Below, in pieces: positions 16,869-55,167 of a stretch of DNA of 55,167 nucleotides. The position numbers and the translations under genes are program-made. Under the pieces are notes generated by a model, which did not search any database, was not told the DNA's origin, and worked only from the letters and a program-made list of their open reading frames with translations. Source of the DNA: Bacteroidota bacterium (GTDB lineage: Bacteria; Bacteroidota; Bacteroidia; Bacteroidales; JAIFNL01); the NCBI GenBank assembly GCA_020047755.1, contig JAIFNL010000003.1, positions 1 through 55,167 on the forward strand. The letters are read 5' to 3'. Positions within the stretch are counted from its first letter, which is position 1. The number at the start of each line of letters is the position of its first letter.

Positions 16869-16876
16869 TATATTTG
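16869..16876 (+). promoter_or_regulatory. Bacteroidota -7 promoter element for alaS
   Basis: TATATTTG(CA) about 165 bp upstream of alaS. Confidence 0.55.
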
Positions 16877-19661: not shown

Positions 19662-19687
19662 TTCGATTTCTCAAGTTAGTCAATTTC

Positions 19688-19731
19688 AACTATCCGAAAG
19701 CGTCAAAACTTTCGGATAGTTTTATTTTTTT
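19688..19731 (+). terminator. Rho-independent terminator after alaS
   Basis: AACTATCCGAAAG / CTTTCGGATAGTT 13-bp perfect stem plus T tract. Confidence 0.85.
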
Positions 19732-19734
19732 ACT

Positions 19735-39412: not shown

Positions 39413-39567
39413 TGTTTTTAAGAATGATTTGAAAAATAATTAAATAATATCGTTTTGGCAAAGAAAATTAAAACAAATTGTAATTCCAATTATTAATCTG
39501 ATTCTTTTCTTTTTTTATGATTATTTAACTAATCTACAATAAACATATAAAAAATTAGAATTTGAAA

Positions 39568-40647
39568 TTAATTTGTAATTACTGCATTTACTGGGCAAAT
39601 TTGTTTACAAGCATCGCATTTTACACATTTCTCATTATCAACTACATGCAACTCATAAGGTTTGTGTAAAATAGCCTGAGTTGGGCAAACTTGTGCACAT
39701 TTTGTGCAGCCAATACACTCATTAGTAATGAAATACTGGACTAAATTGACACATTTTCCGGTTTTACACTTTCCGTTGATGTGCTCAATATATTCATCTT
39801 TAAAATATTTTAAGGTTGATAATACCGGATTAGGCGCTGATTTTCCTAAGCCGCAAAGACTACCTTTTATTGTGCTTTTTGCTAGATTTTCAAGCATTTC
39901 CAAGTCTTGCAGTTTGCCTTTTCCCGAAGTGATTCTATTTAAAATTTCGAGCATTTGAGTAGTCCCAATTCTGCAAAAAGTACATTTCCCGCACGACTCA
40001 TTTTGTGTGAACGACAGAAAATATTTTGCAATGTCCACCATGCAATCGTCTTCGTCCAAAACAATTAAACCGCCAGAGCCCATCATAGCACCAACTTTGC
40101 TAAGAGATTGGTAATCAACTGAAATATCGGACATTTCGGCAGGAATGCAGCCCCCCGAAGGACCACCAATTTGAACAGCTTTAAATGCTTTGTTGTTAGC
40201 AATTCCGCCGCCTATTTTTTCAACTATCTGCCTGATAGTTATGCCCATAGGGACTTCAATTAAGCCTCCCCGTTTTATTTTTCCGGCTAAAGCAAAAACT
40301 TTGGTACCTTTGCTATTTTCTGAGCCAATGCGAGCAAAAGCGGCTGCTCCTCGTTTTATAATCCAAGGCACTAATGCCAACGTTTCGGTATTATTTATTA
40401 AAGTTGGTTTTTCCCACAAACCTTGCTCGGCAGGGTAGGGTGGTCGCATACTCGGATAGCCTCTTTTGCCTTCTTCAAAAAGTTCAATTTCTAGCGAAAA
40501 TTTGCTTCCCAAAATAGTTGTACCTACTAAATTAGCTTCTTTACAAAGAGCAAGCGCATTTTTAATTCGCTCAACAGCAAGAGGATACTCAGCTCTAATA
40601 TAAAAAAGACCTTTGGTTGCACCAACTGCAAAAGCTGCAATCAACAT
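39568..40647 (-). CDS. C-terminal part of NuoF/HydB-like flavoprotein (SLBB, 4Fe-4S, 2x[4Fe-4S]); downstream fragment of a frameshifted gene
   Basis: YIRAEYP, RPPYPA, INNTET, GGPSGGC, ESCGKCTFCRIG, SLCGLG, CIGCTKCAQVCP and CVKCDACKQICP. The GAGAxxCGEETAL FMN loop is absent. Confidence 0.88.
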   Translation of the reverse strand: MLIAAFAVGATKGLFYIRAEYPLAVERIKNALALCKEANLVGTTILGSKFSLEIELFEEGKRGYPSMRPPYPAEQGLWEKPTLINNTETLALVPWIIKRGAAAFARIGSENSKGTKVFALAGKIKRGGLIEVPMGITIRQIVEKIGGGIANNKAFKAVQIGGPSGGCIPAEMSDISVDYQSLSKVGAMMGSGGLIVLDEDDCMVDIAKYFLSFTQNESCGKCTFCRIGTTQMLEILNRITSGKGKLQDLEMLENLAKSTIKGSLCGLGKSAPNPVLSTLKYFKDEYIEHINGKCKTGKCVNLVQYFITNECIGCTKCAQVCPTQAILHKPYELHVVDNEKCVKCDACKQICPVNAVITN

Positions 40648-41821
40648 CCATGAACGCGCCAGGGTCGCCTTCGTCGCCGTTGCAAATAATATACTTGGTG
40701 TCGGAATTTATGTTTTTCACAATTTTCCATTTTGTGCCCGTCGGAAAACCTCCGCCTCCTCGTCCACGCAAGCCACTGTTATCAATAATTTCGATGATTT
40801 GCTCAGATGAATATTCGTTCAGGCATTTTTCAAAAGCTTTAAAACCACCCAAACGACGATATTCTTCTAAGTTAGTAGGGCTAATTTCACCTCTATATTC
40901 TGTTGCTATATTTATCTGACCATCAAGGAATTCCGAAACCGGAGTGTCGCGTTTGTTCGAAGCATAACGCCTTACTGATTTTGGCAAATCTTGGACTATT
41001 TTTTCCTCTAAAAAACTGAAAAAATTACTTTTAAAACGATGAAAAAGATTTTTCGATTTAAAATGCTTTCTTATAATTTGGTTTACTTCTTCTGGTTTTA
41101 TTTTAGAATAAAAAACGGGCAATTCGCCTTGTTTATGTACTTCTAAAAGAGGAACTTGATTGCAAATTCCTACGCAACCTACTTGTTTTACATCAACAGA
41201 TATTTTATTCTCAAAAAGAGTTCTTTCTAGCTCATTTTTAACATCTTGGCTGCCGCTCGCCACGCAACACGAGCCTAAACCCACGCGTACTTCACCTTGT
41301 GAATTTGCAACTGAATCGAAATTTGCTATTCGCTTTGCTTTGGGGTTGTTTTTTGCAGATAGAAAATCAGCTAAAATATTTGCTATTCCATCAGTTTCAA
41401 CGTGTCCATAAGTTGTATTATCTATTTGAATAACAGGCGCAATAGTGCAGCATCCAAGGCAAGCAACTTTGTCGAGTGTAAATAATTTTTCGGCATCTGT
41501 ATCTTCATTTTCAGCTATTTTCAATTCTCGTTTAAAAGCATCGTACACACGCATTGCTCCTTTTACATGACAGGCTGTGCCCACGCAAACCTTTATAATA
41601 TGCTCACCTACAGGCTTATGTCGAAATTGAGAATAAAAAGTAGAAATTCCATAAATTTGTGCCGGACTTATTTCTGTATTTTCGCAAACATATTCCAAAG
41701 CCTCTTGAGGCAAATAGTTAAATTCATGCTGAATAGCTTGTAAAATAGGAATAACTTTATTTTTAGTTTTCCCCTTTTCCTGAATTATTTTTTCTACTAT
41801 TTTTCTACTATTTTCCATCAT
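40595..41821 (-). CDS. N-terminal part of NuoE(HydC)-thioredoxin-like 2Fe-2S-NuoF(HydB) fusion; upstream fragment of a frameshifted gene
   Basis: STFYSQF, VCVGTACHVKG, ACLGCC; second 2Fe-2S domain GSCCVASG...GCVGIC; SGLRGRGGGGFPTG.KW and CNGDEGDPGAFMD, after which the frame is lost. Likely start ATG 41821. Confidence 0.88.
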   Translation of the reverse strand: MMENSRKIVEKIIQEKGKTKNKVIPILQAIQHEFNYLPQEALEYVCENTEISPAQIYGISTFYSQFRHKPVGEHIIKVCVGTACHVKGAMRVYDAFKRELKIAENEDTDAEKLFTLDKVACLGCCTIAPVIQIDNTTYGHVETDGIANILADFLSAKNNPKAKRIANFDSVANSQGEVRVGLGSCCVASGSQDVKNELERTLFENKISVDVKQVGCVGICNQVPLLEVHKQGELPVFYSKIKPEEVNQIIRKHFKSKNLFHRFKSNFFSFLEEKIVQDLPKSVRRYASNKRDTPVSEFLDGQINIATEYRGEISPTNLEEYRRLGGFKAFEKCLNEYSSEQIIEIIDNSGLRGRGGGGFPTGTKWKIVKNINSDTKYIICNGDEGDPGAFMDVDCSFCSWCNQRSFLY

Positions 41822-41893
41822 TTTATATAGAATATGTTCAATACTTATAATTCTAATTGCTTTTAATTTTTTTTGAAAAATCAAGAAAAATTG

Positions 41894-43669
41894 CTACTTT
41901 CCAATGCAATATAAATTTTCTTTGCCACGAATATAAATTCGACCATCAGCAAAGGCTGGCGTACAGGTTGAATTTTCGCCTAGTGGATTTGTTGCTATTA
42001 AATTGAACTTATCACTAGCAATAAAAATATGTGTATTACCCTTCATATCAATAAGATAAATGCTATTATTGACCAAAACAGGCGAGCCATAAAAGCCAGT
42101 AGAAAATTCATGTTCCCAAAGTTTTTTACCGTCTTTTGAACCATAGCAAGCTACTGCACCATAGCTAGTTATCAAAAAAAGATAGTCTTTGGTAGCTATT
42201 GGGCTTGGCACATCTGACATATATTCGTCGCTTTGCCAAAGAATTTCAGGAGTTTCGCCTAATTTTATTGCCGATAAATTTGCATACTCATTGGTTGCAA
42301 ACACCACGCCATCAGCATAAGCAGCTGATGGACCTACTTCACCAAAGATACAATCAATTTTCCAGTTTTCTTTTCCTGTGTAAGGGTTATAGGAGGCTAC
42401 ATAAGGGTCAGCAACTAGAATTACTTCCGTTTGTTTTCCGGTAGAAACTACAATGGGTGATGCCCATGAAATTTTTACTTTGCGTGGTGTGCTCCACACG
42501 GTCTTTCCTGTTAATATATTCAATGCCATTACTTTAGCTTCCGATTTTTGGTCATATTGCACAATTAATTTGTCTTGAAAAAGCATAAGCGACGACGAAT
42601 GCCCGTAATGATTGCCCATAACTCCTAAATTGCGAGCCCAAACGCGATTTCCTTCCATGTCAACAGCTACTACATCGCCATTTGAAAAAATAGCATATAC
42701 TCTCCGCCCATCAGTTGCCAGTGTGGGGGCAGCATGTCCGGTATCGGCAGTAACTTTAGGCGCTGATGAAGGCGAGCCTGCTACGTTTTTTACTTGATGA
42801 GTCCAAAGAAGTTTTCCGGTATTTCTATCAAAGCAATAAACTTCCCGTTTTGTTTCGTCAGCACCGCTTACAAAGAGTTTATCGCCCCAAATAATGGGCG
42901 AATTATAACCTTGCAAAGGTGTTTTAATTTTCCAAAGTATATTTTGTTTGCTTGTCCCATTCCATTTTGTGGGAACATTTTTCTTGTAAACCACCCCATT
43001 TCCGCCAATTCCTCTAAAAGTTGCATAATTTTCGGCTACCTCTTTTGCTGTTGGAAACGGAGTTTGCTCAATCGCTAGCGAATCAATATTTTTTAATGTA
43101 TCAGAAAGTTCTTCTGCTGCTAATTCTTCGTTTTCATTTACCTGGTTATTTTCTGCTGAAAGAGAATCAGAAGGCAGGCTATCGTTTGCTATATTTTGCA
43201 CAAAAGTATTTTCTAACTGCTTGTGCGACAGAAATGCAGAGATTAAAGCCAGCATTACAAGGCTTAAACCACCAAAAATGAGCCATTTGCGAGCTTTTGC
43301 TTGAGCAAAAAATGCTTCATCTTTTTCAAGATATTCTACTTCGCGCTTTCCCGAAAGTAAAATTTGCATAGCTATAACAAACAGAGCCACAGCTGCTAAC
43401 AACAAATACCCACCCATGCGAATTTGCCACTGACTTGTAAAATAAGCTTTTCGCGAAAGCAAATCTATGCTGCGAATCTCCTCGCGAAGTGCCTCATTGT
43501 TTGGGTCTTCATTGAGCCTTTGCATTAAATTTTCAATTATTTTTGCATTTACAGGATCAAGTTGCGAATACTGTATGTAATTAACTATGAGTAAAATAGC
43601 TATAAAAACAGCGAAAAATGCTGTTCCATAAGCTATTTTTTTCCAAAGTTCGTTGTTTTTTGAATTCAT
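41894..43669 (-). CDS. Membrane-anchored (about 3 TM) BamB/PQQ-like beta-propeller protein
   Basis: Three hydrophobic segments, acidic linker, TFRGIGGNG, then repeated TGK.LW and SP blades. Confidence 0.88.
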   Translation of the reverse strand: MNSKNNELWKKIAYGTAFFAVFIAILLIVNYIQYSQLDPVNAKIIENLMQRLNEDPNNEALREEIRSIDLLSRKAYFTSQWQIRMGGYLLLAAVALFVIAMQILLSGKREVEYLEKDEAFFAQAKARKWLIFGGLSLVMLALISAFLSHKQLENTFVQNIANDSLPSDSLSAENNQVNENEELAAEELSDTLKNIDSLAIEQTPFPTAKEVAENYATFRGIGGNGVVYKKNVPTKWNGTSKQNILWKIKTPLQGYNSPIIWGDKLFVSGADETKREVYCFDRNTGKLLWTHQVKNVAGSPSSAPKVTADTGHAAPTLATDGRRVYAIFSNGDVVAVDMEGNRVWARNLGVMGNHYGHSSSLMLFQDKLIVQYDQKSEAKVMALNILTGKTVWSTPRKVKISWASPIVVSTGKQTEVILVADPYVASYNPYTGKENWKIDCIFGEVGPSAAYADGVVFATNEYANLSAIKLGETPEILWQSDEYMSDVPSPIATKDYLFLITSYGAVACYGSKDGKKLWEHEFSTGFYGSPVLVNNSIYLIDMKGNTHIFIASDKFNLIATNPLGENSTCTPAFADGRIYIRGKENLYCIGK

Positions 43670-43699
43670 TTTAAAAATATTTTGTATTTTATTTTACTG

Positions 43700-44365
43700 C
43701 TATTCTTTTTCATTTTTTATTGTTATTGGGCAAAAATCCATGCACCTTCCACAGCTAAAACACTCGCCCTTATTGGGTGTATAATCTGTTCGATAACGAT
43801 AAATGGACAAGCCTGCAAGCATTAGTCCAAAAACTAAACCCATAAAACCGCCTACAAGCATTCCGCCCATTTTAAACTCTTCAATTTTATCAGCAGCTTC
43901 TTTGAAAAGCTCTTTTTCTGTTTTGCCCGAAGCTTTAAAACCTTCTACATCTACGTTTTCGGGTAAATTTTCGGGATTTTCTTTTGCTATTTTATTATAC
44001 CTGAAAACTTCTTGAGCTAATTGTACTTTTGGGTTTACTTTTGCTAAAGTTTCATTCATTTGCCTTCCTACATATCCACCTACAAAAATTAATGCCGGAA
44101 TAATTAATGCTAAAATTAAAAATTTACGTGCAAGCACTGTTTTATCTTCCTTAATATTAAGCTTTTCTGGCTTGTCAATTGCTCCAAACGGACATGAATT
44201 TTCGCACAAGCGACATTGTATGCAAGTAGTAGGCGTTATTTGCATGTGATATTTTGAAAAGCGGCTAAACCAGTTCAATATCACGCCGTAAGGGCAGAAA
44301 AAACGGCAATAAGGGCGAGCAATAAACATACCGGCAACAAGAAAAATAGCACCAATTATAAACAT
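43700..44365 (-). CDS. NapH/MauN-like membrane 4Fe-4S protein, C-terminal fragment
   Basis: RPYCRFFCPYG, CIQCRLCENSCP, two more TMs and terminal CFSCGRCMDFCP. The frame is open upstream as RLDAKFY to 44386. Confidence 0.8.
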   Translation of the reverse strand: MFIIGAIFLVAGMFIARPYCRFFCPYGVILNWFSRFSKYHMQITPTTCIQCRLCENSCPFGAIDKPEKLNIKEDKTVLARKFLILALIIPALIFVGGYVGRQMNETLAKVNPKVQLAQEVFRYNKIAKENPENLPENVDVEGFKASGKTEKELFKEAADKIEEFKMGGMLVGGFMGLVFGLMLAGLSIYRYRTDYTPNKGECFSCGRCMDFCPITIKNEKE

Positions 44366-44946
44366 ATAAAATTTTGCATCGAGCCTTCACTTTCCGTAGC
44401 CGCGTAAAGTACAGCTAAAGCCAAGTAAATATAAGGAATTACACGCAAAAGAGCTTGTGTCCATTTTTTTAACTCAATGGGCTTAAAAATTACTAAATCT
44501 TGAATTGCTCCCAAAGGACAAACGCCAGCACAAAAAGTTCTTCCGTAAAAAAGCGTATAAATTAAAGGCAAAATAAAAAACAAAACGGCTGTTAAAGGAA
44601 TAGAATAATTGGGATTGAAAAGGGCTAATGTGATATTTTGAATTGCTCCAATAGAACAAACGCAACCTTCGCGATAAAAGCCAAAATATAAAAGTGAAAA
44701 TATTGATAACCAAAATATTCCACGCCTAGAGCGTTTTTTCACAACCAGATATGATGCTAAAGAAAGAGCTGCTAAAAGAACAAAAACATCGAGGTATTCT
44801 AATGCTAAAATACGTGTAGGTGATTGATGCAAAGGAGGTTGTGTATGCCCACTTTCAAATTCCGGCTTAGGAAAACGCTGCGCAAAAGCGATTGTTGTTT
44901 GTAGCAAATTTATTGCTAAAAATATAATTAAAATAAGTTTTTTCAT
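44356..44946 (-). CDS. NapH/MauN-like membrane 4Fe-4S protein, N-terminal fragment
   Basis: Signal peptide, TMs, GCVCSIGAIQ and GRTFCAGVCPLGAIQD (CxxxCP); the frame is lost after LYAATES. Confidence 0.8.
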   Translation of the reverse strand: MKKLILIIFLAINLLQTTIAFAQRFPKPEFESGHTQPPLHQSPTRILALEYLDVFVLLAALSLASYLVVKKRSRRGIFWLSIFSLLYFGFYREGCVCSIGAIQNITLALFNPNYSIPLTAVLFFILPLIYTLFYGRTFCAGVCPLGAIQDLVIFKPIELKKWTQALLRVIPYIYLALAVLYAATESEGSMQNFICL

Positions 44947-44969
44947 TTATTTATATATAATCTATTTTT

Positions 44970-45545
44970 TTAACTAAAGTCAGCTCCTTCTCCGCTAAAA
45001 CCTTTGAAAATATTGGGCTTGCTTGCAGGAACTCTTGAGTAAGCATCTGCTGGACAGTCAATTGCAATGGCACATTGATTGCAATTCACACAAATATCAT
45101 GTCGCACTTGCAACTGCAACGAGCCATTGCCAAAAGCATCGCAACCAGCTACGCATTTTCCGCAGCCAATGCACAATTCTTCGTCAATGTTATATTCAAA
45201 AAATGGGTCTTCTACATAAGTTCGTTTAATTGCATTGGTCGGACAAAGCTGATTTTCAGCAGCTGTGGTAAGATTTTTTGTTTCGGGCTTAAAATAGCCG
45301 CCGCACAAATCGCAATAGCCGCACATGTCGTGTACGTGTACAACTTTTACAGCAGAAGGTGTTAAAACACAAGAAGTTACACATCTTCCGCATTGTGTGC
45401 ATTTTGCAGGATCGAGCTGCCATACCAAATCATCGGAAAGCACATTTTTTAACAAAGCACCACCTAAACCTACTAAGCTCAAGGCTAAAGAAAAACGGAC
45501 ACCTTTGTTAATAAATTCTCGTCTATCTATTTTATCATTTGCCAT
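44970..45545 (-). CDS. Twin-arginine-signal polyferredoxin (NapG/MauM-like)
   Basis: DRREFI plus hydrophobic stretch; CTQCGRCVTSC, CGYCDLC...LCP, CIGCGKCVAGC and CVNCNQC..DCP. Confidence 0.82.
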   Translation of the reverse strand: MANDKIDRREFINKGVRFSLALSLVGLGGALLKNVLSDDLVWQLDPAKCTQCGRCVTSCVLTPSAVKVVHVHDMCGYCDLCGGYFKPETKNLTTAAENQLCPTNAIKRTYVEDPFFEYNIDEELCIGCGKCVAGCDAFGNGSLQLQVRHDICVNCNQCAIAIDCPADAYSRVPASKPNIFKGFSGEGADFS

Positions 45546-45579
45546 AAATTTATATTAGTAAATTATAAGTATAAAAAAA

Positions 45580-45780
45580 TTATAATTTTATATTGTTTTT
45601 TCTAAAAGAATTTGCTTGTTCTAAATTGCATGATTTATTTATTTTGCAATTTTTACAAACAAAATCTAAGTCGCAAGCTTCATTGTTTTCATCTTTTAAA
45701 ATCAAAAATCCAGCAAGTGCTGCCAAAACAGAAAATAAGCTGTAACGCATTATTTTTTCAAAAAACTCTCGTCTATTCAT
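45580..45780 (-). CDS. Small twin-arginine, membrane-anchored 4-Cys protein
   Basis: MNRREFF, hydrophobic helix and C-x5-C-x2-C-x5-C; 66 aa, in operon orientation. Confidence 0.75.
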   Translation of the reverse strand: MNRREFFEKIMRYSLFSVLAALAGFLILKDENNEACDLDFVCKNCKINKSCNLEQANSFRKNNIKL

Positions 45781-45846
45781 GCTTAAAAAAATTATAAATC
45801 AATTAGTTGTAACTTTTTTAAAATAACTTCAATGCAATTATTATTA

Positions 45847-46797
45847 TTATTCAAAGATTAAAATTTTCCTTTTTTTCGTGTCAAGTGCAAAGATTCTATC
45901 TTTTGAATCAATCGCTAAATCTATACCTTTTGTTCCTTTTTCAAAAAAATTACTTCCTGCTACAAGGCATTTAAAATCACCATTTGGCGAATGAATTTTT
46001 ATTCTTTCCAGCCCTTTTTCGCTAGTAACAAAATCGCCGTTTGAAAGCATTGCAATGTGCGATGGATTGCAGCAACCGCTAAAACCATCTAAGCCCATTG
46101 ATGTTTTTTTCCATGTAGAAAAAACCTCGCCATGCTCATCAAAGGCAGTAAATTCGTGCCTTCCAGTGTTTACTGCCCAAAGCTGTCCTTCACGACCTTT
46201 GCAAATATCAAAGTATGGGCTTGGAATAATAAAACCGTGAAACTTTTCTGTTTTCTTTCCAATTTCTTGTAACATATTGCCATTAAAGTCAAGTTTATAA
46301 ATCAATTTATTTCCCGCATCGGCAACTAAAATAGTTTCTTGTTCCAAAAGAATACTGGTAAAATGTGTTTTTTTCGGAAAGTTAGAAAAAGTTTTTAGCA
46401 ATTTTCCTTTTTTTGTAAAAATTTCAATCCTATTTTTGTAAGCAATAAAAATGCTATCTTCTTGATTAACTGCTATTGAACTTATATTACTTGAAACTTT
46501 AATTTCATATTTTTTTTTACCTGTTGTTTCAAAAATAGCTAAAAATTTATTTCCGCCTACATAAAGTTCGTCTTTGGGTGAAATGCAAATTGTGAAAGCA
46601 CTATCGTAATTTAATTGAATTTCAGAGTTTTGTGAGAAGCATAATTTTGTTGTATCAATCTGTTTATATTTATCAATATTAAATTTATAGCTATTTATTT
46701 TTTCTTTTTCTGAGAAAAACAAATCAAATAGCATAAAAACTAAAACAAGAAGCAATAAAATTGTTGCAAAAGAGACTATAATTTTATTTTGTTTCAT
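45847..46797 (-). CDS. Membrane-anchored NHL-repeat beta-propeller with GCCNP motif
   Basis: N-terminal TM; NHL-like LVADAGN and DLAIDSKDRIFALD; FIIPSPYFD and FSGCCNPSH. Likely start ATG 46797. Confidence 0.8.
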   Translation of the reverse strand: MKQNKIIVSFATILLLLVLVFMLFDLFFSEKEKINSYKFNIDKYKQIDTTKLCFSQNSEIQLNYDSAFTICISPKDELYVGGNKFLAIFETTGKKKYEIKVSSNISSIAVNQEDSIFIAYKNRIEIFTKKGKLLKTFSNFPKKTHFTSILLEQETILVADAGNKLIYKLDFNGNMLQEIGKKTEKFHGFIIPSPYFDICKGREGQLWAVNTGRHEFTAFDEHGEVFSTWKKTSMGLDGFSGCCNPSHIAMLSNGDFVTSEKGLERIKIHSPNGDFKCLVAGSNFFEKGTKGIDLAIDSKDRIFALDTKKRKILIFE

Positions 46798-46825
46798 TAT
46801 TTTATAATTCAAAATTGATAATTAA

Positions 46826-47368
46826 TTATTTTATTTTTCTAATTGTTTTATTGTCGCCATTGATTCGTATTTTATCGAAATTCACATTTTCAGCATTCCA
46901 GATTTGATAAGTAAGTCCGACACAGCAATTACAATCGCAATAACTGCCATAAGGAATGTATTTTAAATCAATGAGTTCGCCTATTAATTCTAGCTCGCAT
47001 AAAAAGTCGAAACAACAGTTTTCTACAATTTGCAATTCTACAAAAAATAAGCTGTCTTGTTTGTAAAAACTAATATCAGAAACTCCTGTTTTTGTAAGTT
47101 TCTCGTAATCACCAGATTCTTTGCATTTTGTTAATTGAACTTTTTGCAAAAATAGCCCTTCAAAGGCAGCTTTTATTGTACTGCGTGTTTGTAAAACAGT
47201 TGTTCCGGCTAAAACGGACATGTTAAAATTGTTTGATTGATAGAGAATTGTATCAATTGTTTCGTAGCCTGAATTGGAATAATTTATGTGTAAGGTATCA
47301 TATTCTTGCGCAAAAAAATTTGCGGTAGAAAAAATTAAAATAAAATATAAAAAAATAGTTTTTTTCAT
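46826..47368 (-). CDS. Exported Cys-rich hypothetical protein
   Basis: Signal peptide ending FA-Q; ENCCFDFLC and YCDCNCC. Likely start ATG 47368. Confidence 0.7.
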   Translation of the reverse strand: MKKTIFLYFILIFSTANFFAQEYDTLHINYSNSGYETIDTILYQSNNFNMSVLAGTTVLQTRSTIKAAFEGLFLQKVQLTKCKESGDYEKLTKTGVSDISFYKQDSLFFVELQIVENCCFDFLCELELIGELIDLKYIPYGSYCDCNCCVGLTYQIWNAENVNFDKIRINGDNKTIRKIK

Positions 47369-47406
47369 AAATAATATTTTCAATGATAAAATTTTACACT
47401 ATTAAA

Positions 47407-48834
47407 TTATTTTTTTTCTATATCAATGCAAATCATAGTTTTGGAATCGCGCAAAACCATTTTTCCGTTGGCAATAGCCAAAGGAGCCCAAGCATCGTGT
47501 CCTTCAAGCACTTGCGCTTGGTCTAATACTTGAAAACTCGATGTTGATAGTTTTGCAATAGTCAACATGCCATCATCGTTGAGTATGAAGAATTTATCGT
47601 CGGCAATAATGTAAGGTCCTAAGCCAAAGCGATATTCTTTGCCACTTGTCCAGAGCAAATTTTCGACATCTGATTGTTTGCAACAAACAAATTGGTTGCG
47701 CAAAGCACCTGCATCTTTGGGTAAAATACCGAAAATGAAGCCTTTATAAAATATTGGTGTTTGTTGCTCTGATGCCAAACCATCTTTAGGTTTGAAATCT
47801 TGTAATATACTGACAGTGAATTTATTGCCATTTGCTTTCAATTTAAACAAAATAGAACCAGCTCCATAACCTGCTGTCATAAAAATTTTTCCGTTTTCTA
47901 GCACTAATGGCGAAGGAGCGACCACTGAGGGCGCAAAATCTTTTAAACTCCAAAGAATTTCGCCTACATTGTCCCCGTCGGCTGCAACTCCAATAATTCC
48001 GCCTACTGCAGCGTACACATACATTTTTCGTCCACCCAAAAACATTGGCATAATAGACGAATGTGACATTTTGAAATTATCAGGGTTCGGCGTTTTCCAA
48101 ATTACGTTTCCTGTTTTGCAATCTACTCCTATTAAAAGAGAAGTTCCTGAAGGTGCAAAAATGGCTATATTGTTCTCAATAATAGGGCATTGACCTGTGT
48201 ACCAAAATGGAATTTCGCTTTTAAATTCTTTTACTAAATCAATACCCCAAAGCAAATCACCATTGTGTGGATTTGAGCACATTGCGTGCCCTTTTGGTCC
48301 TAGCGTAACTATGAAACTATCAGTAATTGCTGGCGTTGTACGCGACATTCCATGATTTCGTTTCACGTGATTTTTGTACGAACGCTTCCAAATTTCTTTG
48401 CCGTCGATTAATGAAAAGCATCGCAGCGCATCAGATTTTTTAGTTTCTTCATAATCAAGAATATATACTTTCCCATTGTAAATGACAGGAGCCGAATGAC
48501 CTTCGCCTAATTTGTGTTTCCAAAGTATTTTTGCTCCATTTTCTGGAAATTTATCAATTAATTTGACTGTTTCTTTGTTTTGATTATCGAAATCTGCCCC
48601 TCTAAAACGTGTCCATTTTCCTGTTAAATTTGACGAAAACTCTTCATACTTCTCAAATTTTTCGCCTATTTTAACTACTTCTTTTGTTAATGATGAACTA
48701 TCTGGTCTGTTATCCATTCCTGGTAAACTTTTCTGAAAATCGCTTACCGGATTGTAAAACCACCAAAAAAGAGTAGTACTAAATGCAAGTAAAATGAGAA
48801 TAAATAGTATATTTTTATGTGAAAAAAAAGTCAT
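47407..48834 (-). CDS. Membrane-anchored BamB/PQQ-like beta-propeller protein
   Basis: N-terminal TM, WTRFRG, GEGHSAP, RNHGMSRTTP, repeated G.I.W blades and terminal WAP. Confidence 0.88.
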   Translation of the reverse strand: MTFFSHKNILFILILLAFSTTLFWWFYNPVSDFQKSLPGMDNRPDSSSLTKEVVKIGEKFEKYEEFSSNLTGKWTRFRGADFDNQNKETVKLIDKFPENGAKILWKHKLGEGHSAPVIYNGKVYILDYEETKKSDALRCFSLIDGKEIWKRSYKNHVKRNHGMSRTTPAITDSFIVTLGPKGHAMCSNPHNGDLLWGIDLVKEFKSEIPFWYTGQCPIIENNIAIFAPSGTSLLIGVDCKTGNVIWKTPNPDNFKMSHSSIMPMFLGGRKMYVYAAVGGIIGVAADGDNVGEILWSLKDFAPSVVAPSPLVLENGKIFMTAGYGAGSILFKLKANGNKFTVSILQDFKPKDGLASEQQTPIFYKGFIFGILPKDAGALRNQFVCCKQSDVENLLWTSGKEYRFGLGPYIIADDKFFILNDDGMLTIAKLSTSSFQVLDQAQVLEGHDAWAPLAIANGKMVLRDSKTMICIDIEKK

Positions 48835-48920
48835 ATTCTATTTTTTTACTACAAAAAATAATCTTCTGATTTTAAAATATAATATTAAAAAAATCAGGTA
48901 ATTATTCTAAACTAAAGAAA

Positions 48921-50174
48921 TTATTTCTTTTGAATATCATAAACCATTACTGCGGTTGCATGCCGAACATAAAGTTTTCCGTTATCTATCACTAAATGAG
49001 CCCAAAAAGGACCTTTGCCTAAAGGAACTTTAAACGAACTTACTACTTTAAATTCTTCGGGTTTTGCTTCTATAAGCCCAATGTTTCCTCGCTTTTCGTC
49101 AAGACAATAGAGCATTCCTTCGGCAGAAATTATAGAACCTTTATTTTCCCATTTTTCTTCGTACATTACTTTTCCGCTGTCCCACTCCAAGCAAGTCCAA
49201 TTTCCCATTCCATTGTTTAACCAATTAGCTCCATAAATATATTCACCGATGCGAACAACGCCTCCATGATGCACATCGAGAGTGGAATCTACCCACATAA
49301 GTGATACATTATCAGCCTTTTCGCTTAATTTTAGTTTCACGCTTTTGTGGTTGTATCCGCTAGTGATAAAAAGCTCGCCTTTGTAATAAATAGGCGTATT
49401 TGCTTGAACAGCAGCCTTCCAATCGCCCAAATATGCAACATATTTGCTAAAATTGAAAGTCCATAAAATTTTACCGTCGGAAGGTTGAATTCCAAAAATG
49501 TAATCCTCGGTAGCTGAAACAATTTGCTTTATATTGTTGTGAATAACTAACTTGGGCGAAATATAAGAAGGTTTGTCTTTTAAACTTTCCGATTTCCAAA
49601 TTAAATTACCGGTTAATTTATTCAAAGCAATCATTGTTGTTTGTTCGCCACCCGGCAAAAAGAAAACTTTATCTTCATCTATTAAAAGTGATTCGGAAAT
49701 GCCCCATTCGCCAAAAGTTCCTCCAAACTCTTCACTTGCTTTTTTTTCCCAGATTATTTTTCCATTATCGGAATTAATGCAAGCCAAATCGCCTTTGCCA
49801 CTTGAAACGTAAATACGATTTCCTTCGATAGTGGGGGTTGCTCTACTATCTGAAAATGAGTCAGTCCAGCCACGCCCAAAGGTAGTTTGCCAGCGAATTT
49901 TACCATTCTCGTCTAAAGCCACCAAAACGTCCATCGTATCTTTAAGTCCTGTTACATAGGCTTTTCCATTTGCAACGGCAACAGAGGAATAACCTGTTGG
50001 TAACGAGTCAATTGACCAAATTAAGTTAGGTCCATTTTCTGGCCAAACTTTTAATAAATTTGTTTCGCGTGTATATACGCCTGTTCTGTCAATTCCACGC
50101 CATTCGCTTATTACCTGGGCAGAAACAGTAGAAAAAAGAACTAGAAATGCGAAACTGAAGGCAGATTTGAATAT
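48921..50174 (-). CDS. Exported BamB/PQQ-like beta-propeller protein (start codon unresolved)
   Basis: The ORF track starts at 49934, but the frame is open up to TAA 50187-50189. The extension encodes a signal peptide plus SEWRGIDRTG...LLKVWPENGP, matching the neighbouring paralog. No ATG/GTG/TTG occurs in it; ATA at 50174 is used provisionally. Confidence 0.8.
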   Translation of the reverse strand: MFKSAFSFAFLVLFSTVSAQVISEWRGIDRTGVYTRETNLLKVWPENGPNLIWSIDSLPTGYSSVAVANGKAYVTGLKDTMDVLVALDENGKIRWQTTFGRGWTDSFSDSRATPTIEGNRIYVSSGKGDLACINSDNGKIIWEKKASEEFGGTFGEWGISESLLIDEDKVFFLPGGEQTTMIALNKLTGNLIWKSESLKDKPSYISPKLVIHNNIKQIVSATEDYIFGIQPSDGKILWTFNFSKYVAYLGDWKAAVQANTPIYYKGELFITSGYNHKSVKLKLSEKADNVSLMWVDSTLDVHHGGVVRIGEYIYGANWLNNGMGNWTCLEWDSGKVMYEEKWENKGSIISAEGMLYCLDEKRGNIGLIEAKPEEFKVVSSFKVPLGKGPFWAHLVIDNGKLYVRHATAVMVYDIQKK

Positions 50175-50203
50175 TAATTTGAGAGTTTAAAATACAAAAA
50201 AAA

Positions 50204-51487
50204 TTATTTTTTTGCAATATCATAAACCATAAGTGCAGTTCCATGTCTGATGTACAAACGTTTATTGTGAATAACACTATGTGCCCAGTGCTGCTTTTCG
50301 CCATAAGGAACTTTAAATGAGCTAATTAAATTATATTTATCGGCTAAAGGTTCAACTAAAGCTACCACGCCAGCTTCGTCGTAGCAATAAAGCATTCCGT
50401 CTGCAAAAATGATATTTCCAATTTTTAGCATTTTCGATGCGAAGAGTTGCTTTCCTGTATTCCAATCCAAGGCATACCATTTTTTATTGAAATCGCCTGA
50501 GCCATAGATAATTCCATTGTGTAATACAACTCCTCCCATTTTATTGTCCAGTGAGTCATTTCGCCAAACTTCGGTAACTGATTTTGCGTCGGTCGCAAGT
50601 TTTAGCATTACTCCACCTTTTCCGTAACCACTTACACAATAGAGCATTCCATCTTTAAATAGAGGAGTATTTGCATGAACGGAATATTTATTGGGGTGAG
50701 AAAAATCCCATAATATTTTACCACTTTCTACGTCAAGACCTATTATAAACGTTTGAGTCATAGTTATTAATACTTTTTGACCGCCATATTCTATTATTAA
50801 GGGCGAATTATAGGCGCTAATTTCGCCTTTCCCCGTACTTTTCCAAATAACTTTTCCGGTATTTTTATCAAAAGCAACGATATTTGCATCTTCGCCTCCT
50901 ACCGTACAAAATAATTTATTTCCATCAGCAACAAGGTTTTCTGTCATTCCCCATTTTGTATTTCTGGCACCAAAATCTTGAATTAAATCTACGCTCCAAA
51001 GTTTGTTGCCTGTTTTTGAATCCATGGCAACTAAAATGCCTTTTGCACTCAAAATGAATAACTTATCGCCATCTATTAGTGGTGCTGAGCGAACGCCTTC
51101 GTAGCTATCGAGCCATTCTTTGGCGTATATTTTTTTCCAGATTATATTTCCAGAATGGTCAAATGCAATGATAAAGCCATCTTGAGTTTGTGCATCTGTT
51201 CCGGCAGCATAAACGAAATTGTTTGTTACAGCAACTGCTGCATGACCATCACCAAGCCCAAGGTATTTCCATGCCAGTTCGGGACCTGCGTCATTCCATT
51301 TTTTTAACAGCCCTGAATCTTTATACTTGCCATCGCGATTAACCCCTCGCCATTGAGAAGTTTGCGTAGCATCAAAATTAGCTAAAGAAGCATTAGATGC
51401 TTCCATTTCGGTCAGATTACCACTTGATTGAGAATTGCAATTTGTGATGAACACAAATAACATGAGTATAGAAATAATATTTTTCAT
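50204..51487 (-). CDS. BamB/PQQ-like beta-propeller lipoprotein, first gene of the leftward operon
   Basis: Lipobox-like ITNC, SQWRGVNRDG, LLKKWNDAGP, TG.KLW blades and terminal WAHSVI..RLYIRHG. Confidence 0.88.
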   Translation of the reverse strand: MKNIISILMLFVFITNCNSQSSGNLTEMEASNASLANFDATQTSQWRGVNRDGKYKDSGLLKKWNDAGPELAWKYLGLGDGHAAVAVTNNFVYAAGTDAQTQDGFIIAFDHSGNIIWKKIYAKEWLDSYEGVRSAPLIDGDKLFILSAKGILVAMDSKTGNKLWSVDLIQDFGARNTKWGMTENLVADGNKLFCTVGGEDANIVAFDKNTGKVIWKSTGKGEISAYNSPLIIEYGGQKVLITMTQTFIIGLDVESGKILWDFSHPNKYSVHANTPLFKDGMLYCVSGYGKGGVMLKLATDAKSVTEVWRNDSLDNKMGGVVLHNGIIYGSGDFNKKWYALDWNTGKQLFASKMLKIGNIIFADGMLYCYDEAGVVALVEPLADKYNLISSFKVPYGEKQHWAHSVIHNKRLYIRHGTALMVYDIAKK

Positions 51488-51533
51488 ATAAAATTATATC
51501 ATTAAATTGAATACAGATACACTAGAAACTGCT

Positions 51534-51541
51534 CAAAAATA
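51534..51541 (-). promoter_or_regulatory. Bacteroidota -7 promoter element for the leftward propeller/Fe-S operon
   Basis: TATTTTTG on the minus strand, about 47 bp upstream of ATG 51487. Confidence 0.5.
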
Positions 51542-52028
51542 GTAAAAAAATCTTTTTCAATGCTATTTTGCTAAAATAGATTGATTCTAAATTATGTTTA
51601 TGGAATAAGTTTTGTGTTTTAAACTTATATTTTATAGTTTAAATACCTGATAATGAATATTTAATATTTTTTTGCGAATAATTCATTTCTTGTTCGTATT
51701 TATTAAATTTATTCTTAAAAATAATTTTGAAATTCTGTTTTATTCGTTCTATTTTTTTATGCATTAATATATAAAGCATTGTTTACCAGTTTTTTTTAAG
51801 AATATTTTATCTCTTTTGCGATGATGCGTTTCTTTTTTTTTATGAATTGATGAAGTTTTGGTCTAAAAATAAATTTGAAGTATTGGTTAATAAATAAATT
51901 GTCATTAAATTTGAATTTTAAAAGAAAGTTATTAATTTTTTAATATTTTGAAATATTTTATTGATTAAAATAAAAATTTTAAGGTATTTTTTATAGTTTC
52001 AAATGGTTCGATTTTTCAAACGTAGAAA

Positions 52029-53591
52029 ATGATAAAATTAAGAATTGATAAGCAGAATATAGAGGTTGAAAAAGGGAAAACTGTTTTAAAAGCTGCGCAA
52101 CAATTAGGAATTAAAATTCCAACTATGTGTTTTTTAGAAGGGTATTCAAATCACCCTTCGTGTATGCTTTGTGTTGTGAAAGATGTAAAAACCGGAAAAC
52201 TTTTTCCTTCTTGTGCTATGCCTGCGCAAGAGAATATGGATATTATTACATTTGATGAAGAAATTGAAATTGCACGTCGTGAAGCTTTGGAACTACTTTT
52301 AAGCGACCATGTTGGCGATTGCGAGGCACCTTGCAGACCTTCATGTCCTGCTTTTATGAATATTCCTAAAATGAACCGTTTGATTGCATCGGGAAATTTT
52401 GCTTTAGCACACAAAACGGTGAAAGAACATATTGCTTTGCCCCTTGTATTGGGCTATATTTGCCCTGCTCCTTGCGAAAAAGCTTGCCGACGAACGCAAA
52501 TCGACGATGCTGTTTCTATTTGCCAATTGAAAAAGACGGTAGCTATTGATGATTTTCAAAATAATCATTCTTTTTTGCCAGAAAAGAAAAAGAAATCAGG
52601 TAAAAAAATTGCTGTTATTGGTTCGGGACCGGCAGGATTAGCATCTGCTTTTTATATTTTGGCAGAAGGGCATGAATGCGATGTTTATGATAAAAACGAA
52701 AAAATAGGTGGAGCGCTAGCTTATGAAGTTCTTGAAAACCAATTACCTGCCGATGTATTATTACAAGAAGTGGAGTTAATTAAAAAATACGGTGCTAAGT
52801 TTATTTTGAATACTGAAATTGATAAAAATCGGTTTGAAAAGGAATTAATACCGAACTATGATGCAATAATTTTAGCAACAGGCGATTATTTTGGCTCTAA
52901 AATTGAAAATTTTGGGTTAGAAGAGAGCAAAAATGGAATTTTAGTTAATAAAAACAATTATGCAACTCAAAAAAAAGGCGTTTTTGCTTGTGGTAACATA
53001 GTTCGCTCGCGCCGAATGTCTGTTAATGCTGTTGCACAAGGCAGGATTGCCGCATTTTCGGCAAGTAAATTTGTAAATTCAGAAGATTTTACTCAGCCAG
53101 AGCGAATGTTTAATTCTAAGTTTGGGAAATTGAGAGAAGCTGAAATTGTTCAATATCAGAAAGAAGCGATAACTGACGCACGCCAAAAAACAGAAAATGG
53201 AAAACTTGGAAATTTAACTTTTGAGCAGGCTGTTATTGAAGCAAAGCGTTGCCTCCATTGTGATTGTAGGAAAGCTGACGATTGCAAATTGCGCATTTTT
53301 TCAGACCAATACAATGCAAGCCAAGCAAAATTTGCTTTTATCGAGCGCAAATCGCTGAAAAAATACTTTGAGCATGAACTGATTATTTACGAACCAGAGA
53401 AATGCATTCGTTGCAATTTGTGTGTTGATATTGCTCAAAAAGATGGCGAAAAAATAGGCTTAAGCTCAGTGAAACGTGGTTTTAGAGTCGAAATAAGCGT
53501 TCCTTTTGATAAAAATATGACACAAGCATTACAAATAGTTGCAATAAAATGCGCCAACGCTTGTCCGACAGGAGCTTTGTCTGTAAAATAG
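52029..53591 (+). CDS. NuoG/HydA-N-like 2Fe-2S plus GltD-like FAD/Fe-S plus 4Fe-4S oxidoreductase
   Basis: IPTMC...SCMLC...PSC (2Fe-2S); HVGDCEAPCRPSCP and ICPAPCEKAC (GltD-type clusters); IGSGPAG FAD motif; EAKRCLHCDC; CIRCNLC...CANACPTGAL. Confidence 0.88.
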   Translation: MIKLRIDKQNIEVEKGKTVLKAAQQLGIKIPTMCFLEGYSNHPSCMLCVVKDVKTGKLFPSCAMPAQENMDIITFDEEIEIARREALELLLSDHVGDCEAPCRPSCPAFMNIPKMNRLIASGNFALAHKTVKEHIALPLVLGYICPAPCEKACRRTQIDDAVSICQLKKTVAIDDFQNNHSFLPEKKKKSGKKIAVIGSGPAGLASAFYILAEGHECDVYDKNEKIGGALAYEVLENQLPADVLLQEVELIKKYGAKFILNTEIDKNRFEKELIPNYDAIILATGDYFGSKIENFGLEESKNGILVNKNNYATQKKGVFACGNIVRSRRMSVNAVAQGRIAAFSASKFVNSEDFTQPERMFNSKFGKLREAEIVQYQKEAITDARQKTENGKLGNLTFEQAVIEAKRCLHCDCRKADDCKLRIFSDQYNASQAKFAFIERKSLKKYFEHELIIYEPEKCIRCNLCVDIAQKDGEKIGLSSVKRGFRVEISVPFDKNMTQALQIVAIKCANACPTGALSVK

Positions 53592-53640
53592 TTTATATTT
53601 CTATATTTCAGATACTTATTTTTAATTCTTAAAGAAAATA

Positions 53641-53862
53641 CTAGAATAAACCATTGAATTTTCTTTTTTTCCAATCGTCAATGATTTGTTTTACTTCATT
53701 TTTTCCAATTTCAAAAACCGAAGTTAGCCTGTCGAGGTTTAATTCGCTAGATATGAGGAGAATAATGTGAGCTTTTTTACGAGTTTCGATATTTTTACTT
53801 GTACGCATTATGTGGTACAAATTTTCTTTTTCAACTTTTTTTAGTTTTATTGAGGCTTCCAT
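53641..53862 (-). CDS. Small helix-turn-helix protein resembling the N-terminal HTH of IS630-family transposases
   Basis: RKKAHIILL...V..I...W.K..FNGL pattern; 73 aa; own TAATTTTG promoter box on the minus strand at about 53913-53920. Confidence 0.6.
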   Translation of the reverse strand: MEASIKLKKVEKENLYHIMRTSKNIETRKKAHIILLISSELNLDRLTSVFEIGKNEVKQIIDDWKKRKFNGLF

Positions 53863-53979
53863 GACTTTTAGGTTTTAATTGTTAGTACTAAGTTTTATTC
53901 CTTTATTTGTAGCAAAATTACCCTCTTTTTTTACAATATACATCTGGTAATTTACTTAAAGAATCTTTTTCCTTTAATT

Positions 53980-53995
53980 TAGGTACTTTTACCTA
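53980..53995. promoter_or_regulatory. Palindromic operator-like site
   Basis: TAGGTA-CTTT-TACCTA in the divergent intergenic region, with a weaker copy (CTGGTAATTTACTTA) at about 53944-53958. Confidence 0.4.
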
Positions 53996-54172
53996 TTTTT
54001 TTTTTGAAGAGAAATTTGTTTGTTGTTATTTTTGCTATATTTAAGAAGGTCTTTAGTATTTTAAAATTTGGAGATGTTTTTTTAGAAAAAAAAGATACTT
54101 TTGTTTTTTAAAACTCTTTGCCATTTCTTTGTTTTTTTTACTACATTTTATACTTTAAAATTTAATTTTATA

Positions 54173-55167
54173 ATGAAAACTATAGTTGCTTTTATATTAT
54201 TTTATCTCTTTTCTGTGCCTCTTTTTGCACAAAGTAATACTTGTTGGCCCTCGTTTCGAGGGAATGTAGCATTGACTGGAAAAACGAGAGTTAATTTACC
54301 TGAAAACTTAAAATTATTATGGACGTATAAAACAGGAGATATTATTAAATCTTCGCCTATTTTTTGCGGAAAAAGTATTTTTGTAGGCTCCAACAATGGT
54401 TTTGTTTTTTCTATTTCTGCAAAAGGTAAATTGAATTGGAAATTTAAAGCAGCGAGTTCAGTGGAAGCGCCACCTTTGTATTTGCATGATATTGTGTATA
54501 TTAGCTCAAACAGTGGAATGCTTTATGCTTTAGATGCAAAAACAGGCAGCTTGAAATGGAAATATGAAACCGAGGGACAAATTTTAGGTTCAGCAAGTTG
54601 GACTTTTACCAAAGACTTGAAGAAAAAACTCATTTTGGTAGGAAGTTATGATTTTTATCTTCATGCTGTTGATTCAGAAACGGGTAAAGTCGTTTGGAAA
54701 TATGAAACTGATAATTTTATAAATGGAGCACCTGCTACTAGCGAAACTGCTGCAATTTTTGGTGGTTGCGACGGTTTTTTGCATTTGGTTAATTTAGAAA
54801 ATGGGAAAAAACAAAATAAAATAGAAATTGGAACTTACATTGCTTCTTCACCTGCCTATGAATTGGGAAAAGCCTATTTTGGAAATTACGATGGTGGTTT
54901 TTATTGCTTAGACTTGGGCTCTAAAAAAACGCTATGGAAGTACGAAGGAGCTGGCGGTTTTATTGGCTCACCGGCTATTGGTGATAATGAAATTGTCATA
55001 GGTTCGCAGGATAAAAATTTGTATTGTTTTGATAAAAAAACAGGTAAATTGAATTGGAAATTTCCAAGCTTAAAAAAAATTGATGCTTCGCCTATTATTG
55101 CCGGAAATAAAGTAGTACTCGCTTCTAAAGATGGAAGAGTTTATTTGCTTGATTTAAAGACTGGTAA
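54173..55167 (+). CDS. Exported BamB/PQQ-like beta-propeller protein (partial, runs off right edge)
   Basis: Not in the ORF track because there is no stop. Reads MKTIVAFILFYLFSVPLFAQSNTCWPSFRGN...LLWTYKTGDIIKSSP...YALDAKTGSLKWKY...GGCDGFLH... and stays open to the end. Confidence 0.9.
   Translation, partial: MKTIVAFILFYLFSVPLFAQSNTCWPSFRGNVALTGKTRVNLPENLKLLWTYKTGDIIKSSPIFCGKSIFVGSNNGFVFSISAKGKLNWKFKAASSVEAPPLYLHDIVYISSNSGMLYALDAKTGSLKWKYETEGQILGSASWTFTKDLKKKLILVGSYDFYLHAVDSETGKVVWKYETDNFINGAPATSETAAIFGGCDGFLHLVNLENGKKQNKIEIGTYIASSPAYELGKAYFGNYDGGFYCLDLGSKKTLWKYEGAGGFIGSPAIGDNEIVIGSQDKNLYCFDKKTGKLNWKFPSLKKIDASPIIAGNKVVLASKDGRVYLLDLKTG

Follow-up and report, generated by a model that had tools for sequence, protein, structure and literature searches.

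A widespread and undescribed cluster of flavoenzyme, iron–sulfur and beta-propeller genes in Bacteroidales and in other phyla, and their candidate link to an orphan terpene cyclase

In a 55,167-nt stretch of DNA from a Bacteroidales bacterium (assembly GCA_020047755.1, contig JAIFNL010000003.1; hereafter the window), an earlier note made from the letters alone had proposed a trans-envelope redox system encoded by beta-propeller genes, exported iron–sulfur (Fe-S) proteins and a HydBC-type flavoenzyme. Our analysis demonstrates that these genes form a real, widespread and undescribed multi-gene system, which provides a testable lead to an orphan terpene cyclase. We consider it likely that the redox part of this system (R module) is a wired conduit that carries electrons outward, from a cytoplasmic core of the bifurcating Bfu family to propellers in the periplasm, and we suggest, more tentatively, that this conduit serves a glycosylated isoprenoid lipid of the envelope. 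In addition to the earlier proposal, the present work provides a correction of the assembly, the loss of an NADP domain in the flavoenzyme, a minimal form of the module, and the co-occurrence of the system with a GT4 glycosyltransferase and with the cyclase.

Using the ferredoxin of the cluster as query, we found 160 relatives among species genomes and kept the best 80 loci, counting a gene when it shared the strand of the ferredoxin and fell within the flanking sequence, which extended to 10 kb at most and often stopped earlier at a contig end. On this basis, propeller and Fe-S genes clearly co-occur in other genomes, collinearly in many of them: a NapH-like membrane Fe-S protein is found near the ferredoxin in 76 of the 80 loci, an NHL propeller in 74, the propeller propA in 68, a propeller protein with three transmembrane (TM) helices (3-TM propeller) in 67, a NuoE-NuoF fusion (NuoEF) in 55, an NfnA-like (GltD-like) subunit in 50, the propeller prop5 in 40 and a GT4 glycosyltransferase in 30. 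The usual order is one to five propellers of the propB/C type, propA, the NHL propeller, a small Cys-containing peptide, the ferredoxin, the NapH-like protein, the 3-TM propeller, NuoEF, the GltD-like subunit (directly 3′ of NuoEF), prop5, GT4, a LolD-like ATPase and an FtsX permease. The Cys-rich exported protein that the earlier note had counted as a part (46826–47368, minus strand; no Pfam or NCBIfam match) must be dropped from the system, as it is found in one of the 80 loci. The closest relative loci carry record titles mostly of Bacteroidales, and the relatives as a whole have titles of Bacteroidales, Planctomycetaceae, Kiritimatiellae, Verrucomicrobiota, KSB1 and Neomarinimicrobiota. 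Carriers amount to 55 of the 301 genomes sampled from the order, 25 of the 201 sampled from the planctomycete phylum (the phylum of locus L073) and one of 301, the own genome, in an even phylum-wide sample; they include cultured Labilibaculum, Marinifilum and Ancylomarina. All genome counts given here are lower bounds, because the cyclase of genome G666, although seen in its locus, did not appear in the genome search. The RefSeq and UniProt names of the cluster proteins are generic, and we found no paper describing the gene set in the literature outside subscription journals. This agrees with the earlier view that no characterised pathway is known to have these genes. Membership of NfnABC, NapGH, PQQ (pyrroloquinoline quinone) dehydrogenases and BamB fails on the features tested.

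Within the window, open reading frame (ORF) and profile analysis recovered every gene that the earlier note had listed, in the same order and on the same strands. The ~12-kb run of closely spaced minus-strand genes spans 39568–51487 (11.9 kb, with start-to-stop gaps of ~23–86 nt) and consists of propC, propB, propA, the Cys-containing protein, the NHL propeller, a 66-aa peptide and a polyferredoxin both with a twin-arginine (RR) motif, the NapH-like protein, the 3-TM propeller and the NuoE-NuoF fusion, while the plus strand carries the GltD-like gene (52029–53591) followed by prop5, which runs from an ATG at 54173 to the contig end. Three of these genes are broken in this assembly. Comparison with locus L010 shows a frameshifting deletion of 40 nt in the NapH-like gene at 44386 and two deletions in NuoEF, one of 44 nt near 40648, also frameshifting, and one of 51 nt near 40474, in frame but with part of an FMN-site motif gone; the frame of propB is open from 50186 without a start codon. 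The assembly was checked with contigs from four of the ten listed runs, which come from three studies, are all microbial-mat metagenomes and possibly include the source sample; no RNA run was among those listed as containing the cluster. These contigs hold 40 extra letters at 44386/44387 in three of the four runs and 65 extra letters at 50152/50153 in all four, so the breaks of the NapH-like gene and of propB are assembly errors; both genes are confidently taken as intact, and their real pseudogenisation was rejected. The evidence for NuoEF is more indirect: in one run, a loose end at 40646 was read as encoding the missing motif (agreement 0.76; possibly from other organisms), and one run contig departs from the window at 40474. 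This gene is probably intact as well, its two deletions being assembly errors, and its real pseudogenisation is unlikely. Note that four deletions of 40–65 nt within 10 kb (40474, 40648, 44386 and 50152) suggest frequent local deletion errors and call for caution with other broken genes of this genome.

The cytoplasmic part of the system has the complete core of a Bfu enzyme. The NuoE-NuoF (BfuC-BfuB) fusion (39568–41821, minus strand; ~780 aa in relatives) has NfnB (9n5u and 9bov), StnB (8oh5) and HydB (7t2r) as top PDB matches. Its C1 and B1–B5 ligand cysteines, its B2 histidine (His711 in L010 numbering, also present in the window copy) and its motifs GDPGAFMD and GAGAF[IV]CGEETAL occur in all 50 full-length relatives. 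According to the sections of the Bfu survey used here, the C1 and B1–B5 ligands and the FMN-site motifs define the Bfu core (PMC9304861), and the B2 histidine is absent from non-bifurcating homologues (PMC9304861, section 6). These features are shared with the NfnABC/StnABC enzymes (PMC9304861, PMC11829005, in the parts cited), from which the present module differs in that C and B are fused and in that A is strongly reduced. Indeed, the BfuA/NfnA-like subunit (520 aa; 52029–53591, plus strand) matches NfnA in its N-terminal and NfnL-like parts, the alignment covering residues 4–292 and 421–671 only of the 1178 residues of 9bov, so that residues 293–420 are absent and the alignment stops before the Fdh/NuoG-like C-terminal domain that the cited part of PMC11829005 gives for the A subunit of bacterial NfnABC/StnABC enzymes. 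The ~130 missing residues are best read as the NADP(H) Rossmann part, on the basis of the fold and of a paralogue in the same genome (contig C120) which has the NADP motif there. This motif is found in none of the 64 NfnA-like sequences, the FAD-binding Asp is mostly replaced by Asn or Ser, and G450, G532 and G666 have lost the FAD domain entirely, with G020, G646 and G527 similarly short (323–366 aa); the longer form of L061 (648 aa) holds an unrelated insert. Thus, the binding of NADP(H) at an FAD domain and the C-terminal Fdh/NuoG-like domain, both features of the A subunit of Type 1 Nfn-Bfu enzymes, are missing here. With the NADP(H) domain lost, the module is not an Nfn/Stn transhydrogenase, and its NfnA-like subunit, which has no catalytic domain left, needs an outside partner, as in Type 2/3 Bfu enzymes (PMC9304861, section 5). 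The subunit is best read as an Fe-S relay, and the module may work like a Type 2/3 enzyme. The HydBC-type flavoenzyme of the earlier note is borne out as to every core ligand and the HydB match, but the loss of the NADP(H) domain from its GltD-like partner had been missed. The genome has in addition a separate NuoE/NuoF/NfnA-like set (C120:40290–47044) of Stn/Nfn-like type, in which the NADP motif is intact and an unrelated 523-aa gene is inserted between the members. We rejected the idea that a hydrogenase or a molybdoenzyme is a hidden partner of the cluster: three FeFe-hydrogenase-domain hits and four molybdopterin hits are on other contigs, several with NuoEF paralogues of their own, and none is linked to the cluster.

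In the outward conduit that we favour, the BfuBC core would receive electrons from NADH, probably together with reduced ferredoxin, and the NfnA-like subunit without its NADP site would relay them to the cytoplasmic clusters of the NapH-like protein. They would then cross the membrane via the two CX3CP motifs of this protein and a site formed by three cysteines at the outer face, and pass to the Tat-exported four-cluster ferredoxin, the four-Cys peptide and the vicinal CC of the NHL propeller, to end at a site on propA or on the 3-TM propeller. The NapH-like protein (43700–44946, minus strand; split at 44386) has a signal peptide, two CX3CP motifs and ~7 predicted TM helices, and a TM hairpin divides its 2x[4Fe-4S] domain into two halves. 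It also has three further invariant cysteines (C95, C97 and C191, L010 numbering). From hydropathy and Lys/Arg bias we infer that the CX3CP pair and the 2x[4Fe-4S] domain are cytoplasmic and that the three extra cysteines lie on the outer face. The polyferredoxin (44970–45545, minus strand), with a putative NapG/MauM-like role, has 16 cysteines that could hold four [4Fe-4S] clusters; R8, R9, F11 and all 16 cysteines are invariant among 66 sequences, and a TatC gene is found in the host genome. Between it and the NHL gene lies the twin-arginine peptide (66 aa, four Cys; 45580–45780, minus strand). Among 66 scorable loci (14 of the 80 were not scorable), 40 encode it separately, 16 have it as a fusion with the ferredoxin and 10 have no detected copy; in G020, G450 and G532, a Tat-type NHL protein with an RR motif and a Cys tail takes its place. 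Such fusions point to a small exported cluster located between the ferredoxin and the NHL propeller. The NHL propeller itself (45847–46797, minus strand) is N-anchored and carries vicinal cysteines in GFxGCCNP, with GCCNP found in 66 of 66 proteins. Read-through frames between the ferredoxin and NapH-like genes in L044 and L052 were rejected as topology evidence, as the NapH signal segment is retained. A complex prediction of propA, NHL and ferredoxin (score 0.09 against a mark of 0.32) is evidence neither way.

The nearest known counterparts of this wire are NapGH, NosGH, MauMN and the fused polytopic polyferredoxin PFD (as presented in the cited parts of PMC5449189), which share the Tat four-cluster ferredoxin and, beside it, a membrane protein that combines two CX3CP motifs with a 2x[4Fe-4S] domain. 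NapGH has a membrane subunit with 4 TM helices, in contrast to the signal peptide, ~7 TM helices, split ferredoxin domain, three outer-face cysteines and Bfu donor in the operon observed here, and the NapH-like protein remains below the family cut-offs (TIGR02163, 50.5 bits vs 213; PRK09477, 53.5 vs 234). It has no PDB relative outside the ferredoxin motif, and a fold search gave no chain at Z >=8 and helical hairpins only, which does not in itself show a new fold. Among the unassigned neighbours, no recurring family of the NapA, NosZ or MauAB kind was found. The smallest form of the wire is given by a minimal module, in which the ferredoxin and a NapH-like protein of shorter length are accompanied by an NHL protein with GCCNP, often fused behind DUF4369, and by a Cys-rich PhnD-like binding protein, but not by Bfu genes or PQQ-like propellers. 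It is marked by divergent ferredoxins (34–40% identity) and is found in G444 (twice), G544, L105–L107 and, where contigs reach, L125–L149. The CxC and third Cys of the outer-face site are kept in all 22 distinct NapH-like sequences listed, including those of the divergent minimal module. Since these parts are kept in the minimal module, NHL propeller, Tat ferredoxin and NapH-like protein appear to be the smallest core conduit, reused in two settings.

The same data bear on the reading that there is not one wire at all, in which the Bfu pair would reduce quinone or act alone in the cytoplasm, the NapGH-like pair would act as a quinol dehydrogenase, like those of Nap/Nos, and only an operon would link the two. 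NapGH is described in this way (PMC5449189, Discussion), the minimal module has no Bfu, and in G027 a long distance separates the Bfu genes from the ferredoxin. However, the NfnA-like subunit has no catalytic domain left and requires a partner, the order NapH-like, 3-TM propeller, NuoEF and NfnA-like is kept across phyla, and the extra TM hairpin that splits the ferredoxin domain is restricted to the Bfu-linked NapH-like form; we thus regard separate functions as very unlikely. The minimal module also bears on a DsbD-like supply, in which the CC pair of NHL would be a periplasmic thiol reductant for envelope proteins or metal sites (e.g., a Cys pair of FtsX) and the propellers non-catalytic scaffolds. 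The slot behind DUF4369, occupied by NHL in lipoproteins of the minimal module, usually holds a TlpA thioredoxin domain, two minimal-module loci are located amid SusC/SusD genes, FtsX has two invariant cysteines, and BamB is the commonest fold match of the propellers. Thiol reduction needs neither a bifurcating core nor low-potential electrons, though, and such a supply leaves the polar pocket of propA and the link to GT4 and the cyclase unexplained, which makes it an improbable reading.

The propellers at the outer end share a fold with PQQ quinoproteins, BamB, tetrathionate hydrolase (6l8a) and YxaL (7dxn), but at 12–17% identity (propA model, Z 31–34). Family models are missed by all of them, with at most 69 bits against 480 for the PQQ-dehydrogenase model TIGR03075 and 22–132 bits against 285 for the BamB model TIGR03300. 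At the head of the cluster, propC (50204–51487, minus strand; 427 aa, N-terminal hydrophobic signal, PF13360 E 1e-32) and propB (48921–50186, minus strand; no start codon, due to the 65 missing letters) are of a BamB/PQQ-like type, with one to five such paralogues in relatives. The best conserved propeller is the membrane-anchored propA (47407–48834, minus strand; 475 aa), for which an invariant polar set (H113, K158-R-N-H161, S164-R-T, W211-x-T-x-Q-C216, M256-S-H258, E356-Q-Q, K373-D, R402 and D447-x-W) is a candidate ligand or active site; four clusters (P0151–P0154) hold propA-NHL fusions. Its AF2 model (pLDDT 92) matches YxaL, tetrathionate hydrolase and BamB about equally. The 3-TM protein (41894–43669, minus strand) bears a C-terminal BamB/PQQ-like propeller that is predicted to be periplasmic, and prop5 (54173–55167, plus strand) is cut by the contig end.

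Such propellers could also suggest that the same wire runs inward. They would then be periplasmic dehydrogenases working with a non-PQQ cofactor or a lipid carrier (possibly the GT4/FtsX product), and the electrons would be bifurcated to NAD+ and ferredoxin for energy conservation. The nearest PDB sequences of propC include quinoprotein alcohol dehydrogenases (E 3e-9), propA is dense in invariant basic and polar residues, and the variable number of leading propellers (1–5) is what substrate-specific enzymes might show. Nevertheless, PQQ dehydrogenases have a vicinal Cys pair over the cofactor, and no conserved vicinal CC is found in propA, propB, propC, the 3-TM propeller or prop5, which adds to the low scores with the PQQ-dehydrogenase models. 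As to PQQ synthesis in the host, PqqC gave no match, as it gave none in the controls, PqqE stayed below cut-off as in all controls, and the one PqqD-family match is also found in B. thetaiotaomicron. Moreover, the reduction of NAD+ and ferredoxin requires a donor near -400 mV, and the linked biosynthetic cassette described below better suits a consumer of reductant. In favour of the inward direction, Bfu enzymes can run either way, and those of the Wor-Bfu types have extra subunits on which a third substrate is oxidised (PMC9304861, section 5); the main text of this survey mentions neither PQQ nor propellers. On balance, we consider inward flow unlikely. In another reading, the conduit would be an outward sink or serve detoxification. 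At the CC pair of NHL or at propA, it would reduce an acceptor outside the cell, be it polysulfide, tetrathionate, a metal or a metalloid, and the glycosylation, export and terpenoid genes would be separate neighbours. Indeed, tetrathionate hydrolase is the top sequence match of the propA alignment (E 2e-5) and is among its top folds (Z 32), but this match is no better than those to BamB and YxaL. The Cys-rich PhnD-like binding protein of the minimal module is also in line with a sink, as are the settings of the carriers, which are sediment, lake and marine by record title, with the runs that hold the cluster mainly from microbial mats. It is however at odds with a neighbourhood in which no outer-membrane conduit, heme or molybdopterin gene is conserved, and, as shown hereafter, with the behaviour of GT4.

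The cluster, which the earlier note had expected to run past the right edge of the window, resumes on contig C204:1–5145 with the GT4 glycosyltransferase (start cut), the LolD-like ATPase and a 1087-aa FtsX permease, as it does after prop5 in relatives. The absence of a recognisable terminal catalyst from the window also holds for this continuation, which has no terminal reductase and instead encodes GT4 and an exporter. GT4 displays an N-terminal FYCxNC motif and an EX7E motif. The exporter resembles the LolCDE/MacB (type VII) systems in its LolD-like ATPase (TIGR02211, 249 bits vs 308) and its double FtsX permease, but differs in the 1087-aa size of the permease, in two invariant cysteines, one per periplasmic region, and in missing every cut-off. 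Note that the CxxC of GT4 adjoins a glycine-rich loop, and that this CxxC and the FtsX Cys pair may be redox or metal sites. In the order sample, 48 of the 55 carriers have GT4, also where it is unlinked (G027, G518 and G575), as against 0 of the 246 other genomes, and two of the seven carriers without GT4 have the minimal module only. That GT4 follows the system without exception in this sample, even when unlinked, argues against the sink, which we rate as rather improbable.

In addition, a five-gene cassette (ferredoxin, radical SAM protein, DUF116-polyprenyl synthase, prenyltransferase-like protein and class II cyclase) lies upstream of the cluster in G020, G450, G532, G477 and G575, and a cyclase heads the cluster in G580 and is present in locus L057. 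The cyclase was found in 16 of the 301 genomes of the order sample, and all 16 are carriers of the system. In the planctomycete-phylum sample, it occurs in 17 of 25 carriers as against 29 of 176 other genomes, and GT4 occurs in 49 of 54 genomes with cyclase or ferredoxin as against 9 of the 147 that have neither. Of 14 carrier loci, 8 include the cyclase in the sequence fetched, and it is interleaved with the cluster in G646, G666, G744 and G612. The linked cyclases are 570–640 aa long, with a DxDD motif in the 12 of 12 that were read and an adjoining polyprenyl synthase in 9 of these. By size, motif, neighbour and range, they fit the 'SHC-like' group of class II terpene cyclases, which the cited passages place in Planctomycetota, Verrucomicrobiota and Bacteroidales among PVC/FCB bacteria, beside a polyprenyl synthase (PMC7306690, PMC12324236). 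That synthase is the sole neighbour mentioned in those passages, in contrast to the GT4, FtsX, propellers and redox chain found here. Other genes near the cassette were also observed. In G477 and G575 (L180–L183, one genus), the terpene cassette and the cluster are flanked by a CobW-like GTPase and by genes that we presume, from N-terminal motifs, to be of an arsenic-resistance type, which would suit the sink described above. GTPases of a similar kind are also repeatedly seen, together with a GcvH-like gene, in the vicinity of planctomycete cyclases, and in G019 (L097) and G554 (L108), again of one genus, a squalene/phytoene synthase, a desaturase and a small flavodoxin-like gene are divergent from the cluster; the latter genes were not counted as terpenoid support, coming from one genus.

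The best explanation of the whole would be a single envelope machine of three modules, a view that we put forward with reserve. In addition to the R module, it would comprise a glycosylation and export module (G; prop5, GT4, LolD and FtsX) and a terpenoid module (T; the five-gene cassette), the latter not in this genome. An isoprenoid-derived envelope lipid would be glycosylated, moved outward by LolD/FtsX, and reduced or kept reduced in the periplasm by the conduit. The conduit from NADH/ferredoxin to the periplasm that the earlier note had proposed agrees with co-occurrence, collinearity, motifs and predicted topology, which are consistent with a chain made up of a Bfu core, a membrane Fe-S protein and a Tat ferredoxin, but that note had missed the minimal core, the GT4 and exporter genes, and the terpene-cyclase cassette. 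Several observations weigh against the three-module machine. This genome, although 98% complete, has no T module, SHC domain, DUF116 or squalene/phytoene synthase. The cyclase was not seen, by the query used, in 39 of the 55 carriers of the order sample, and therefore a cyclised terpenoid cannot be the universal substrate. Conversely, 29 of the 46 cyclase genomes of the planctomycete-phylum sample lack the R module, and at cyclase loci without the ferredoxin genome-wide, G genes flank the cyclase in 2 of 11, within the 20 kb read. Clusters are split or partial in L011, L020, L074, G027 and G518, modules are also unlinked in G575, and the minimal NHL-ferredoxin-NapH module exists without Bfu, PQQ-like propellers and GT4. 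Related genomes are not independent, and they may share a habitat. Finally, NapH-type proteins are described as quinol dehydrogenases (PMC5449189, Discussion), so that a quinone path would be possible in place of direct contact. It is more doubtful still that the system is the anaerobic redox arm of an undescribed PVC/FCB terpenoid-lipid pathway, in which a heme-free Fe-S conduit would connect the bifurcating core to the propellers, the propellers would finish a glycosylated polyprenyl or polycyclic lipid with a skeleton made by the SHC-like cyclase, or recycle it as a redox carrier, the Bfu enzyme would be a new type with a periplasmic third substrate, and the product would be the source of an unassigned lipid biomarker.

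As for the layout of the locus, the window is the entire contig C68 of a 4.6-Mb genome in 313 contigs. The divergence of the GltD-like gene and prop5 from the other genes, as noted earlier, is present on this contig but is local, because a 12-kb segment (39421–52028, with breakpoints in the intergenic regions 39421–39550 and 51488–52028) is inverted relative to the relative genome G001, and relatives are collinear. In blastn against G001, the orientation flips over 39550–51387 and both flanks are collinear; among the pieces listed, single run contigs span the right junction in three of the four runs and the left one in one of the four. Inverted repeats were looked for at the inversion ends, with no convincing one, and scans for promoters and terminators gave counts close to those of shuffled sequence (60 vs 56 and 17 vs 12, respectively). 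A membrane metallophosphoesterase gene (38183–39412, minus strand) owes its position directly downstream of NuoEF to the inversion alone; in G001, this gene and propC are divergently oriented. A loose end at 39424, near the left breakpoint, is common to three of the four runs and may come from another organism or from a variant within the population. A 73-aa ORF (53641–53862, minus strand) located between the GltD-like gene and prop5 has no Pfam match but two paralogues, on C65 and C160, and presumably resembles the N-terminal helix-turn-helix of an IS630-type transposase. On C204, a 4795-aa open frame (5582–19969), probably a large surface protein, comes right after the FtsX gene.

Altogether, the system is common in both the order and the planctomycete-phylum samples and has cultured carriers, and it touches two families with functions to be assigned. 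The Bfu survey, in the sections cited, gives 17 clades without a function and two membrane-bound types, both of them proton pumps (PMC9304861); if the outward conduit is true, a bifurcating core would reach its third substrate across the membrane via Fe-S proteins alone. Likewise, the product of the SHC-like cyclase is described in the cited passages as unknown and as a priority for the biomarker record (PMC7306690, PMC12324236), and if the specific link to a GT4, an exporter and a redox chain is true, it would point to the genes and the lipid class behind the SHC-like cyclases.

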